Positions 41,093 through 44,026 of a stretch of 64,000 bases of DNA are shown piece after piece. The stretch is taken from positions 6,198 through 70,197 of the forward strand of contig NZ_CANBCA010000008.1 in assembly GCF_947367035.1 (NCBI RefSeq). Direction: 5' to 3'. The stretch's first letter is position 1. Each line of letters starts with the position of its first letter. Made by a program: the position numbers and the translations under genes. The notes beneath the pieces were generated by a model. It did no database searches. It was not told where the DNA came from and saw only the letters and a program-made list of their open reading frames with translations. This DNA is from an uncultured Helicobacter sp. (GTDB taxonomy: Bacteria; Campylobacterota; Campylobacteria; Campylobacterales; Helicobacteraceae).

Positions 41093-44026
41093 TGTCCTAC
41101 CTTTGTAATCAATTTTGCGCTTAAGAATTTTTCTATCCATTCTTGCATTATGAGTAAGTCAATATTGCAAATTTCAGCGATTTCTAGCAAGTCCTTTTTA
41201 CCATCACAATACATTAAAAGATTGCGCATATCCTTGATTTGATTAATGGAATCTTTAGTGCTAAGTGTGGGATAAAGCCCCCTTTTACCAAGTTGAGGTT
41301 CGCAAAGAATCGTGTTTTGGTAGATTCCATTGAGTTCCAAAGCACGCAAGATTCTCCAAACATACTGCAAACTATCTGCAAAACTCTGCGCACTGACTAG
41401 GCTTAAATCATCCAAAGAGGTGTGGTATTCCGGATATGCGCCAAACTTCGTGCGCATTAGGGTTGCAAAGGGTAAATCCACATTGGGCGCACAATATTGT
41501 CTCTCATCACTTCCTCTATCTAGGTAGCTGTATTCCTTAAAGCCCTTATAATAATGCGTTAAAACGTGCTTTGCCGCTCTATCGGCTAGATTGTTGCCCT
41601 CCCTAGAGTGCAGCACGGAATAGCTCCTAGAATCTCCTATGCAAGTCAGCACGAATCCCGCGATACAAGAGGCTTGTAAATGCTCTAAATGGCGACTTAG
41701 ATAATAAATACTTCCAATCGTTTCGGGTAGAAATAAAATGCGAATGGAGTAGGGATTCTCCCTTTGGCTTAAAATTTTACCTAGTGCGCAAGCAAGCGCG
41801 ATTCCGCTTAGTTCGTTATTTACCATTTGCGGGTGGCAAATATAGGTGCTAAAGACAATCTCTTGTTTGCTTTTGCCTTGAATGTAAAGTTCAGCATAGC
41901 TTAAGTTTCCGCTCTCTAAGTGACTATCAATGTGGATTTGAAACTTTTTTTGCGAATCTTTGTATTTTTCTTTCAAGGCGCAAAACTCCTCAAAAGAGAG
42001 GCAAAATCCCCACCGCTCTTTATAATAACTTGTGATATAAGGAATTGCACTGGGTTGATTCTCCAAAGAATACAAATGGGATTCTAGCTCCTTAAATGTA
42101 AGCGCACATTGGCAGGGAATGGAATATCCCATTAGGTGTAAATTGTTTTCCTTGAAGTCGCAGATTTTCTCTCCACTTGGTGTGAGAATGTAGGCATCTT
42201 TGACATTCCATTCCTTTGGAATCTCCCAATCAAATGCCTTTGTCCTGCTTGGCACTTCATAAATTTTAAGATTTGGGAGCAATTCTTGCAAGATTTTTAA
42301 AGTTTCTCGGTTTCCATTTCCGCTAAGAGAGCGCGGAATCTTAAATAATTTTTTGGTTAAAGCTAGCATTTCCTCACCATAGCTTAGAAAATCCATCGCG
42401 TCTTTGTTATGGGGTTTGGTTTGGGGAGGCTCGTTTGATTTTACGGGATTTTGCGATTCTAGGTTTTGGATTGCCCATTGCTTAATAGCCTTTCTATCCA
42501 CTTTACCATTAGAGTTTAATGGGAATTTTTCTAATGCAAGAATCTTGCTTGGTAGCATATAAAAGGGAAGTTTGGTGCGCAAGGCTTCTAAAATTTGTTT
42601 AGAATCTATTGCGGAAGTTTCACATATGCCATAAAGCGAGCTTAAGCCGTCCTTTTCTAATAGAATTGCGCGAGATTGTGTGCCACTTGCTTGATAGAGT
42701 GCATTATCAATTTCTAAAAGTTCTACACGGAATCCCTGCACCTTGACTTGCTCGTCTATGCGTCCGCAAAAGCAATAGGCGTTTAAAGTATCATCAAACT
42801 TGCCTAAATCTCCTGTTTTATACCAGCACACCTCATTTTCAACGATGAATTTTTCTCGTGTTTTGTCTGCGTCCTTGTAGTATCCTAGTGAAACTTGGTC
42901 ACCTCCGAGCCAAATTTCCCCAACTTCTCCTTGCGGAATCTCTAGCCCTTTTTCGTCTCTTAGGCTTATGTGTAAGCCTTTATAGGGTAAGCCAAGCGGT
43001 AGAATCTCGCAAAAGTGCGTAGGGATTCCGCATTTACCGATTCCACCCTCTGCAATCAAGCGATATTGTGTGAAGCTAATCGTCGCCTCTGTGGGACCAT
43101 AGAGATTATCTAAAAGTGCATTGGGCGCAACCTTAGCAAACTCCAAAGCAGCGGCAAGAGGTAGTGCCTCTCCGCAAAAGAGAGCGGCTCTTAGCATTGG
43201 AAGCGCATTGGGTTTAAGCGCTTTAAACTTTTGCAAATAGGCTAGGAGTGAGGGCACGACAAAGAGAATATGAATCTTTTTAGAAGCAATGAAAGGAATA
43301 GGATTGAAAAGGACTTTGTGCGGAATCACAACCAAAGTCGCTCCACAAAGCAAAGTGCAAAAAATATCGTGCATACTCAAATCAAAGGTTATATCAAAAA
43401 ATTGCGAGATTCTATCCTGCGGCGCGAAATGGTAGAGGGATTGGATTCTTTGGCAATAGTTTGTGAGGTTTGCGCGTGAGACTAAAACACCCTTTGGAAT
43501 CCCGGTGCTACCGCTTGTAAAGAGCAAATAAGCAGGGGCTAAATCCTGCACTAAATCTTGTTGCTTACTTTGTGTTTCTTGTTGTAGGTTCGGAATCGTA
43601 ATCCATTCGTGGTTAGGAAACTCGTCTTGCAAGGATTCTTCAAAACTAAAGATGAGGAGGCTTGGCAGAGAATCGGCGATTTTTCTAAAGGATTCTATGC
43701 AACTTGGGGCTAATATCATTGGCGCACCACTTGCGCGTTCTATGATATTTTTAAGTCTTTCTTTGGGAAATTTTGGATTTAAGGGAATAAAGGTGATATT
43801 GCCAAGAGTGCAGGCAATAATGCTGATATAAACTTCTAGCTCACGATACCCAAAGATAAAGAGGCTATTTCGCCCCCCCCCCCCCATTTTTAGCCTTTAA
43901 AAACGCAATGAGATTGAAGCTTTGGCTTTGGAGGTTTGCATAGGTAAGTGAGCGGTTCTCCACTTCTATGGCGATATTGTCCGCATAGGTTTCAAAGGCA
44001 TTTAAAAGATTATTTCTTAACTCCAT
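41089..44026 (-). CDS. amino-acid-type adenylation (ANL/DltA-like) domain fused to a COG4310 aminopeptidase-like domain with a C-terminal winged helix; interrupted by a poly-G(13) tract, so phase-variable and frameshifted as sequenced
   Basis: A-domain core motifs: YLLFTSGSTGIPKG, FDLSMHD, NLYGPTE, YKTGDLG, GRIDEQVKVQGFRVEL and NSNGKVDRKA. From M498 (nt 42396) the sequence LFKIPRSLSGNGNRETLKIL...VPSRTKAFDWEIPKEWNV is DUF2172/DUF4910-like. The first 47 codons (ATG 44026, MELRNNLLNAFETYADNIAIEVENRSLTYANL...) lie in another frame upstream of the tract. Confidence 0.75.
43873..43885 (-). repeat. poly-G(13) tract (C13 on the + strand) at codon 48 of the adenylation fusion gene
   Basis: Counted directly: 8 C at 43873-43880 plus 5 C at 43881-43885. 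G12 or G15 would join the two reading frames. Confidence 0.95.

Follow-up and report, generated by a model that had tools for sequence, protein, structure and literature searches.

Switches of the kind considered here are already known from the 5' poly-G tract of Cj1295 and from the tracts of Helicobacter canadensis. Cj1295, which lies in the flagellin glycosylation locus of Campylobacter jejuni NCTC 11168, is ON when its 5' tract has nine Gs (G9) and OFF when it has eight (G8), and it controls a pseudaminic-acid modification on flagellin (Hitchen et al. 2010, PMC3068675). Its family, PIRSF015244, is described as [quoted passage not shown] and includes the protein from Clostridium acetobutylicum (PMC3068675), CA_C2195, the conserved neighborhood of which contains aminosugar N-acetyltransferases as well as an acyl carrier protein (PMC4000134). 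H. canadensis NCTC 13241, an enterohepatic species, has 29 poly-G tracts of 9–16 G that vary in length in the sequencing reads. They read as G on the coding strand and occupy the 5' ends of genes for glycans and surface structures; other tracts, at the 3' end, change the C-terminus of the product, and one sets whether two ORFs are fused or separate (Snyder et al. 2010, PMC2823697).

Here, we describe a poly-G tract in a gene that joins an adenylation (A) domain to a member of the same DUF4910 family, found in a 64-kb window (the whole stretch of 64,000 nucleotides that was analyzed) from an enterohepatic Helicobacter that is closely related to H. ganmani and H. rodentium. We consider it highly probable that this tract is a simple-sequence contingency locus that acts as a translational phase-variation switch. 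The phase-variable tract in the adenylation-DUF4910 gene is new, in that it has not previously been reported for this gene: the tract table for H. canadensis (PMC2823697) contains no adenylation-domain, aminopeptidase-like or DUF4910 gene, and these words are absent from the main text of that paper, while our literature searches returned nothing on phase variation in H. ganmani and three papers that mention DUF4910, none of which concerns Helicobacter. The features of the gene, all on the minus strand, are as follows.

41089..44026, minus strand: the whole phase-variable gene, 978 aa with 12 G and 979 aa with 15 G
43865..44026, minus strand: a 53-codon ORF from the true start, encoding the A-domain N-terminus including core motif A1 (LTYANL)
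43873..43885, minus strand: the poly-G tract (G13 on the coding strand, C13 on the plus strand), codons 48–52 of the 978-codon gene
41089..43887, minus strand: a 932-aa ORF, encoding the rest of the A domain (A2–A10), then DUF4910/DUF2172 (metallopeptidase-like) and HTH_47
44032..44037, minus strand: AAGGAA, a Shine-Dalgarno-like hexamer that lies 5 nt before ATG 44026 and shares bases with the TAA stop codon of the ABC-F gene upstream

The frame opened by ATG 44026 reads MELRNNLLNAFETYADNIAIEVENRSLTYANLQSQSFNLIAFLKAKNGGGGAK at 13 G and ends after 53 aa at a TAG (43867–43865), three codons after the tract, and a second ATG (43887–43885), which adjoins the tract, opens the 932-aa ORF, the product of which is identical to P0001 (WP_297811805.1). 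When the tract was replaced in silico by 11, 12, 13, 14 or 15 G, the predicted product was 62, 978, 53, 63 or 979 aa, respectively, such that among these lengths the 53-aa and 932-aa ORFs are joined only at 12 or 15 G, and the gain or loss of a single G in this uninterrupted tract in the 5' part of the gene separates a full-length ORF from an early stop. An earlier note on this DNA had claimed the count of 13 G at 43885–43873 and the stop after 53 codons, the joining of the long frame only at 12 or 15 G, the AAGGAA before ATG 44026 (present at 44037–44032) and the tract-abutting ATG 43887 as the start of the 932-aa ORF, and our analysis agrees on all of these points. A chance origin of the poly-G tracts was considered and rejected: the poly-G10 pattern occurs at seven overlapping positions in three tracts across the 64-kb window, compared to none in 100 dinucleotide-preserving shuffles. 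All three poly-G runs of at least 10 nt read as G on the coding strand, and the window (37% G+C) contains no A or T runs of at least 10 nt.

The roughly 50 residues encoded upstream of the 932-aa ORF had been taken in the earlier note for a real A-domain N-terminus, and this is borne out by motif A1, by alignment with solved structures and by substitution rates. In the 12-G reconstruction, Pfam AMP-binding (PF00501, E 7.1e-57) spans residues 12–383, corresponding to positions 6–384 of the 384-position profile, and solved A domains and DltA from the PDB (3e7w, 1amu and 4oxi among them) align from residue 2–16 onward. Motifs A1–A10, including the A10 lysine, are readable (LTYANL, FTSGSTGIPKG, FDLS, NLYGPTE, YKTGDL, GRIDEQVKVQGFRVEL, LPFYMLP and NGKVDR), with A1 encoded 5' of the tract and the glycine run encoded by the tract itself falling in the "GVxPxD" loop of the aligned DltA/NRPS structures. 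Relative to orthologues, dN/dS is 0.05–0.29 for the first 47 codons and 0.13–0.14 for the whole gene, and both are under purifying selection.

In the C-terminal half, Pfam identifies DUF4910, DUF2172 and HTH_47 (E-values of 5.8e-89, 1.1e-31 and 4.6e-21, respectively), and residues 546–952 match CA_C2195 (PDB 3k9t) with an E-value of 1e-95. The encoded protein couples an adenylation domain of the NRPS/DltA type to a DUF4910-DUF2172-wHTH module of the Cj1295/CA_C2195 type. Its first 540 residues can be aligned over their full extent with DltA and with NRPS A domains (E 1e-49 to 1e-87) and share their motifs A1–A10 (for example FDLS and NGKVDR), and small, weakly scoring carrier-protein-like ORFs follow the gene; in contrast to these systems, however, the window cluster has neither DltB or DltD partners nor a condensation domain, and its A domain is fused to DUF4910. 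Cj1295 belongs to the same family (PIRSF015244/DUF4910) as the C-terminal half of the gene, but is a stand-alone protein of 435 aa, whereas the module in the window sits behind a 540-aa adenylation domain; the tract of this gene lies inside the adenylation domain and is longer (11–14 G across alleles) than the G9/G8 of Cj1295, and, unlike Cj1295 in its flagellin glycosylation locus, the cluster has no adjoining pse, maf or flagellin genes. CA_C2195 has the same architecture of DUF4910, DUF2172 and a circularly permuted wHTH, and its neighborhood is paralleled in the window by two AAC(3)-like genes and two weakly scoring carrier-like ORFs, but it shows neither phase variation nor an adenylation fusion. 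We note that neither Cj1295 nor any other named Campylobacter protein is among the best 120 matches of a homology search with the DUF4910 half, because the family is so conserved across phyla (53–57% identity); the link between the window gene and Cj1295 therefore runs via shared family membership through CA_C2195 and not via direct sequence identity.

Orthologous tracts differ in length between strains, a comparison that the earlier note had proposed as a check. A G tract is present at the same codon in eight loci (protein identity 65–100%, as tblastn best-segment values), the hosts being H. ganmani, H. rodentium-like and other enterohepatic Helicobacter. The reading frame is intact in four of the eight (the H. 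ganmani type strain, MIT 05-5294 and L003, each with G12, and L012 with G11) and broken in the other four, each with G13 (the window, L002, L005 and L006), and all four broken alleles yield an ORF of 972–987 aa upon a change in tract length alone, with no other lesion. L003 (G12) and L005 (G13) have identical flanks. Full-length orthologues are 972–999 aa in length, and, in H. ganmani, H. rodentium and one other species, protein clusters combine members of 970–985 aa with truncated calls of 911–945 aa and N-terminal fragments of 53 or 62 aa. The 911–949-aa "DUF4910 domain-containing protein" entries for this gene in the databases are OFF-phase truncations of a 970–985-aa enzyme.

Within the lineage of the window, Logan contigs that are 99.9% identical to it and have the same flanks carry G11 (n = 2), G12 (n = 2), G13 (n = 4) and G14 (n = 2) among the matches listed. 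The tract is therefore not invariant, which supports the slipped-strand switch claimed in the earlier note. The sibling runs DRR775127 and DRR775128 have G12 and G13, respectively, and, given this difference and the 99.9% identity, the between-sample differences are unlikely to be fixed strain differences. Alleles with G12 code for the N-terminus predicted for the full-length protein, MELRNN...KNGGGGRNSLF (P0123), and G13 is the commonest assembled length in the lineage (P0121, indexed in 31 collection blocks; 24 contigs read). In the assemblies sampled, OFF far outnumbers ON, with G12 found on 2 contigs as compared to more than 30 for other lengths.

The G13 of the window is the consensus call of a metagenome-assembled genome (P0001, "uncultured Helicobacter sp."), and G runs of 13 nt are error-prone. 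One could thus argue that the true majority tract has 12 G, that the gene is intact, and that the frameshift is an artifact of assembly or sequencing, as Illumina and assembly errors are common at runs of this length and G12 alleles are present in the same lineage. We nevertheless consider this quite improbable. G13 was also obtained in a separate Logan assembly (L001) of run SRR11617819, although the two assemblies of this sample probably derive from the same reads and are then not independent; G13 is, as noted, the commonest assembled length; and the assembly of G11 and G14 as well indicates that variable length belongs to the locus, which would remain a variable tract even if the G13 call were wrong. 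The OFF state at G13 is probably the majority allele of a mixed population and not the state of every cell.

Among the matches listed, all 10 same-lineage contigs from other samples carry an in-frame deletion of 129 nt, which takes out an invariant 11-residue segment of the DUF4910 domain. In strains with this deletion, the gene may already be non-functional, and tract variation may reflect drift as opposed to selected switching. Together with the prevalence of OFF alleles in assemblies and with MAG L011, where the tract is both interrupted and out of frame, this deletion would suit a decaying pseudogene, in which a dispensable cluster is being lost irreversibly and the frameshift marks a stage of that loss rather than a maintained switch. 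What makes such decay very improbable is that all four OFF alleles are otherwise free of lesions and are rescued by the tract alone, that dN/dS is low (see above), that in-frame alleles are found in cultured type strains (L004 and L007), and that uninterrupted tracts of 11–14 G persist at the same codon in lineages whose proteins are only 65–83% identical to that of the window, which neutral decay would not keep. Neutral decay was rejected as the main reading on the basis of the tract-only restoration of the OFF alleles and the dN/dS values.

A further question is whether the 13-G state is null. Translation could start at ATG 43887, giving a 932-aa protein that lacks A1 but has an intact DUF4910 module, or slippage of RNA polymerase or the ribosome could produce some full-length protein, in which case the switch would alter the form or amount of the enzyme. 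This ATG shares its frame with the long ORF only at G13, has AAGG 5' of it with a 6-nt spacer in the window, and has a counterpart directly 5' of the tract in 6 of the 8 tract-bearing orthologues; moreover, PGAP annotates the 932-aa product, and stand-alone DUF4910 proteins of ~430 aa are functional units elsewhere (Cj1295 and P0174, with P0177 a further stand-alone form in other Helicobacter). However, AAGG is absent 5' of the ATG in L003, L005 and L006, L007 and L012 have no ATG at the tract, the ATG consists of AAT followed by the first G and may be incidental, and normal folding is improbable for an A domain that lacks its 47 N-terminal residues; we therefore regard a non-null 13-G state as unlikely. 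Because the tract-abutting ATG is in frame only at G13, one may also conceive of a switch that is not plainly ON/OFF, with a bifunctional adenylation-DUF4910 enzyme at G12, a truncated DUF4910-only protein at G13, and neither at G11 or G14. We hold this to be doubtful, but if true, slippage would rewire the architecture of the enzyme, and hence the kind of glycan substituent and not only its presence.

The surroundings of the gene comprise the following features.

44036..45703, minus strand: ABC-F type ATPase gene (two ABC_tran domains and ABC_tran_Xtn), 9 nt from the start codon of the fusion gene; context and not part of the cluster
44107..44136, minus strand: promoter-like TTGACG-18-TAGAAT (10 of 12 consensus matches), inside the 3' end of the ABC-F gene
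37466..41140, minus strand: six co-oriented downstream cluster genes

The six downstream genes encode, in order, a carrier-protein-like product of 92 aa, a product of 238 aa, an AAC(3)-like N-acyltransferase of 285 aa with a G10 tract, a formyltransferase-like product of 273 aa, a carrier protein of 75 aa (a weak match) and an AAC(3)-like product of 256 aa, such that there are two Antibiotic_NAT/AAC(3)-like genes in the cluster. The 75-aa ORF matches PP-binding with an E-value of 7e-4 and 20.2 bits, under the cutoff of 20.8, and the 92-aa ORF matches the DltC and AmcB models (Pfam/NCBIfam) weakly, with E-values of 4e-3 and 6e-4, below their cutoffs. The gene order of the cluster is kept in L001–L003, and genes for a methionine ABC transporter come after it. 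The earlier note had placed the fusion gene first in its operon; it is indeed the first of this seven-gene biosynthetic cluster, but it may not head the transcript, because the co-oriented ABC-F gene stops 9 nt before it and the promoter/terminator scan found no terminator-like site between the two. The junction between the ABC-F and fusion genes is common to L003–L006 and L018–L026, whereas L002 has a divergent ilvD gene instead. The promoter-like site at 44136–44107 is the best-scoring in the region and possibly the promoter of the cluster, but such promoter and terminator sites are no more numerous than in shuffles, and the scan thus cannot place the start of the operon.

Returning to the contingency locus, we propose that Gs would be gained or lost by slipped-strand mispairing at replication. 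Helicobacter and Campylobacter are not known to possess MutS1/MutL/MutH mismatch repair, the lack of which destabilizes repeats. In a 12-G or 15-G allele, translation initiated at ATG 44026 would run through four or five glycines, which would take the place of the surface loop that separates motifs A1 and A2 of the A domain, and complete the 978- or 979-aa enzyme; with 13 G, translation would end after 53 codons, leaving no adenylation domain, which is the predicted OFF state. Early termination would probably also make the six genes that follow less well expressed, both because translational coupling would be lost and because of polarity. The fusion enzyme, carrier proteins, AAC(3)-like N-acyltransferases and formyltransferase-like enzyme would most likely place an aminoacyl or acyl group onto an amino sugar, with a surface glycan, either the nonulosonic acid of flagellin or LPS, as the candidate target, and switching would yield a population that is mixed for this surface modification. 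If so, a multi-species contingency locus is added for the enterohepatic Helicobacter of rodents and birds, which have received little study, and, in the mouse microbiome, a putative surface-glycan trait can differ among otherwise identical strains in sibling samples. The fusion also offers a biochemical lead, in that DUF4910 may act on a carrier-bound acyl or aminoacyl group destined for an amino sugar.

The second poly-G tract of the window lies within the same cluster.

39328..39337, minus strand: G10 tract at codon 270 of the 285-aa N-acyltransferase gene, after the Pfam domain

Its length sets the last 5–20 residues of the N-acyltransferase, as well as whether the stop codon of this gene overlaps the GTG at which the formyltransferase-like gene begins. 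Orthologues of this tract range from G10 to G14, with same-lineage products of 277, 285 and 291 aa. The tract is paralleled near Cj1295 by the N-acetyltransferase Cj1296/7, which has a poly-G tract of its own. In sister Helicobacter lineages without the G tract, a poly-C tract lies exactly at the domain junction of the adenylation-DUF4910 gene, with the two parts fused at C10 and split into products of 556 and 430 aa at C12. The 5' switch, the C-terminus switch and the fused or separate ORFs of H. canadensis thus all have counterparts here. The third tract in the window, G11, lies in a frame-shifted GT8 glycosyltransferase gene.

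The adenylation fusion gene (41089..44026, minus strand) carries, near its 5' end, a G tract that lies between two reading frames:

44037-44032, minus strand: AAGGAA Shine-Dalgarno sequence, followed by a 5-nt spacer and ATG 44026
43865..44026, minus strand: 53-aa ORF from ATG 44026 (MELRNN...FLKAKNGGGGAK), with its TAG stop at 43867-43865
43885-43873, minus strand: exactly 13 G, by direct reading and script count
41089..43887, minus strand: 932-aa ORF, the first tract G being the G of its start ATG

The earlier note had described the tract length, the frame from ATG 44026 with its Shine-Dalgarno sequence and stop, the rejoining of the frames at 12 or 15 G, and the tract-abutting ATG, and reading and substitution bear out every one of these statements: in silico tract lengths of 11, 12, 13, 14 and 15 G give products of 62, 978, 53, 63 and 979 aa, respectively. 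Runs of at least 10 G occur three times in the window (lengths of 13, 11 and 10) and not at all in 100 dinucleotide-preserving shuffles, while a script count found no A or T runs of at least 10 within the window (37% G+C).

Ten contigs of the window's own lineage, from other sequencing runs, were obtained from protein cluster members and exact-protein look-ups. Over the gene they share 99.9% identity with the window, their tract flanks are the same, and the invariant tract that the earlier note named as evidence against a switch is not what they show.

Tract lengths within the window's lineage (contig, with sequencing run in parentheses)
G11, out of frame: L020 (DRR815561), L022 (SRR35286972)
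G12, in frame: L018 (SRR34411024), L019 (DRR775127)
G13, out of frame: L024 (DRR775128), L025 (SRR35286967), L026 (SRR34411022), L027 (SRR34411027), window
G14, out of frame: L021 (SRR35286949), L023 (SRR35286941)

The protein of the G12 contigs (P0123) reads from MELRNN... through GGGGRNSLF and is exactly the predicted ON product, and the adjacent run accessions DRR775127 and DRR775128 are unlike, at G12 and G13. We consider it highly improbable that the window's assembly contains a homopolymer miscall and that the gene is in fact intact; even so, the nature of the locus would be unaffected, since G13 recurs more often in this lineage than any other tract length among the assemblies sampled.

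By scanning species-representative genomes, with further look-ups of relatives, we located eight loci with a G tract at this codon, four in frame and four out.

Tract length and frame in the eight loci
H. ganmani CIP 106846 (L004): G12, in frame, 981 aa
Helicobacter sp. MIT 05-5294 (L007): G12, in frame
L003: G12, in frame
L012: G11, in frame
Window: G13, out of frame
L002: G13, out of frame; in frame at 11 or 14
L005: G13, out of frame; flanks those of L003
L006: G13, out of frame

Length and frame thus differ among the orthologous tracts, whose comparison had been proposed, and a change in tract length alone yields a 972-987-aa ORF in all four out-of-frame alleles. Protein clusters of H. ganmani, H. 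rodentium and a third species likewise contain, beside members of 970-985 aa, truncated calls of 911-945 aa and N-terminal fragments of 53 or 62 aa. Repeat instability is lost in some alleles: H. pullorum NCTC 12824 (L010, near 4130) has an interrupted tract, G6AG5 (GTGGGGGGAGGGGGC, in frame), an in-frame deletion in P0156 (H. ganmani, 970 aa) has removed the tract and 11 codons around it, and the metagenome-assembled L011 reads GTGGGGGGAGGG near 1215, out of frame.

Pseudogene decay is unlikely as a general explanation, given the restoration of four of four OFF alleles by the tract alone and a whole-gene dN/dS of 0.13-0.14. One observation speaks somewhat in its favour: each of the ten other-sample contigs of the lineage that were read (L018-L027) has an in-frame deletion of 129 nt. 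The missing segment (41398-41526, minus strand), which is intact in the window, is bounded by AGC(C)TA microhomology and encodes 43 residues that include a family-invariant 11-residue stretch. Its loss probably leaves these strains with an inactive DUF4910 domain. Taken together, the retention of a long, unbroken tract at a single codon, differences in its length among near-identical strains, a mixture of ON and OFF alleles free of other lesions, and purifying selection support the slipped-strand translational phase variation put forward in the earlier note. MutS1/MutL/MutH repair, which would keep runs of this kind stable, is known to be missing from Helicobacter and Campylobacter. Slipped-strand changes in the G count would turn translation of the gene on and off, and in the 13-G state the adenylation domain would not be made.

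Domain analysis of the 12-G reconstruction places a Pfam AMP-binding domain at residues 12-383 (profile positions 6-384 of 384), DUF4910 with a DUF2172 insert at 556-899, and HTH_47 at 901-974. Among solved structures, the C-terminal half matches Clostridium acetobutylicum CA_C2195 (3k9t, E 1e-95), and the N-terminal 520 residues align with NRPS adenylation domains and DltA from query residue 2-16. All ten adenylation core motifs are readable, with A1 (LTYANL) falling within the 47 codons upstream of the tract, and in the gramicidin synthetase alignment the Gly run replaces the 'GVxPxD' loop between A1 and A2, a position at which four or five glycines should be tolerated. Since the 47 upstream codons are conserved among orthologues, with dN/dS of 0.05-0.29, ATG 44026 is the real start, and a start at ATG 43887 would indeed remove the N-terminus of the A domain, as had been noted. 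The annotated 932-aa WP_297811805.1 ('DUF4910 domain-containing protein', uncultured Helicobacter sp.) is therefore a truncated call. The public records examined for this gene, which carry the same annotation at 911-949 aa, begin at or downstream of the tract; they represent the OFF phase of an adenylation-DUF4910 fusion of 970-985 aa, truncated so that the N-terminus of the adenylation domain is hidden. This systematic mis-annotation of OFF alleles is part of the main value added by the comparison. Two proteins of the H. ganmani / UBA3407 cluster, P0004 (annotated partial) and P0153 (not so annotated), have odd low-complexity N-termini, HPPPPPPPPPPHPPPPPPAP... and MLFVFGRGREGGGGGGKYSS, which point to G/C runs at the tract that are very long, or wrongly assembled, in some assemblies.

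The OFF state could also be leaky or give an alternative product from the tract-abutting ATG, which we regard as improbable. Its support consists of that ATG, which adjoins the tract in six of the eight tract-bearing orthologues, and of a weak AAGG 6 nt upstream of it in the window.

Downstream of the phase-variable gene lie six co-oriented genes, encoding in order a carrier-protein-like ORF (92 aa), an unknown protein (238 aa), an AAC(3)-like N-acyltransferase (285 aa), a formyltransferase-like protein (273 aa), a putative carrier protein (75 aa) and a second AAC(3)-like protein (256 aa), followed by methionine transporter genes. Loss of translation over 2.8 kb would probably depress these downstream genes as well. 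The description of the fusion gene as first in its operon holds for the cluster; it is not demonstrably first in the transcript, because an ABC-F ATPase gene on the same strand runs to 44036, leaving 9 nt to the start codon, its TAA falls inside the Shine-Dalgarno hexamer, and a sequence scan found no terminator-like site between the two. The only hint of a promoter of its own is a 10-of-12 consensus match at 44136-44107. The ABC-F junction recurs in several relatives; in L002 the cluster follows a divergent ilvD gene after a 136-nt spacer. No pse, maf or flagellin genes lie nearby, and the rest of the window is housekeeping.

The sequence contains an FDLS motif whose Asp is typical of amino-acid-activating domains. 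From this, from the conserved neighbourhood of DUF4910, aminosugar N-acetyltransferase and ACP known for CA_C2195 (PMC4000134), and from the requirement for the same-family Cj1295 in flagellin pseudaminic-acid modification in C. jejuni (PMC3068675), the cluster likely decorates an amino sugar of a surface glycan with an aminoacyl or acyl group. The 5' poly-G of Cj1295 is ON at G9 and OFF at G8, and the adjoining N-acetyltransferase gene, Cj1296/7, has a poly-G as well (PMC3068675). In H. canadensis, 29 poly-G tracts with lengths of 9-16 have been described; every one lies on the coding strand and varies among the reads, and they include 3'-end tracts that alter the C-terminus and one that sets the fusion of two ORFs (PMC2823697). 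By analogy, the present locus would operate in the same way. Unlike these precedents, it joins the DUF4910 module to an adenylation domain and has its tract within the latter. A literature search found no published analysis of phase-variable genes for the organisms of the present locus. The result is well founded yet unremarkable in this group of bacteria; what it chiefly adds is comparative, namely two independent repeat sites of the fusion gene in sister lineages and the second tract in the acetyltransferase gene.

39328-39337, minus strand: G10 at codon 270 of the 285-aa AAC(3)-like gene (39290-40147), past the Pfam domain
11391-11401, minus strand: G11 in the 5' portion of a GT8 (family-8 glycosyltransferase) gene (long ORF 10584-11270)

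The acetyltransferase tract, which parallels that of Cj1296/7, gives 285 aa at G10, 276/277 aa at G8/G11 and 290/291 aa at G9/G12, where its TGA and the GTG start codon of the formyltransferase-like gene overlap. In orthologues the tract is G10 (L002), G12 (L005), G13 (L003, L007, L013) or G14 (L006). Products within the window's lineage measure 277, 285 and 291 aa, with 291 aa in DRR775127 against 277 aa in DRR775128; this looks like the C-terminal switching of H. canadensis. In the H. winghamensis-like clade, orthologues of the fusion gene are without the 5' G tract and have poly-C exactly at the adenylation/DUF4910 junction (L008 5570-5579, L009 4050-4059, L013 5571-5582, L014 5568-5585). 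There the product at C10 is a single fusion of 971-980 aa, and C12 in Helicobacter sp. MIT 11-5569 splits it into two proteins, P0013 with the A domain (556 aa) and P0174 with DUF4910 (430 aa), so that sister lineages carry repeats at two independent sites of the same gene. The glycosyltransferase gene is also out of frame, since the frame from its start (36 residues read) meets a stop past the tract and the long ORF spans GT8 profile positions 82-252 only; its tract flanks (AAT-Gn-CAAAA) are similar to those of the other tracts. A short G8 run (1891-1898, plus strand) lies in frame in the middle of a sodium/glutamate symporter gene (ORF 1373-2581).
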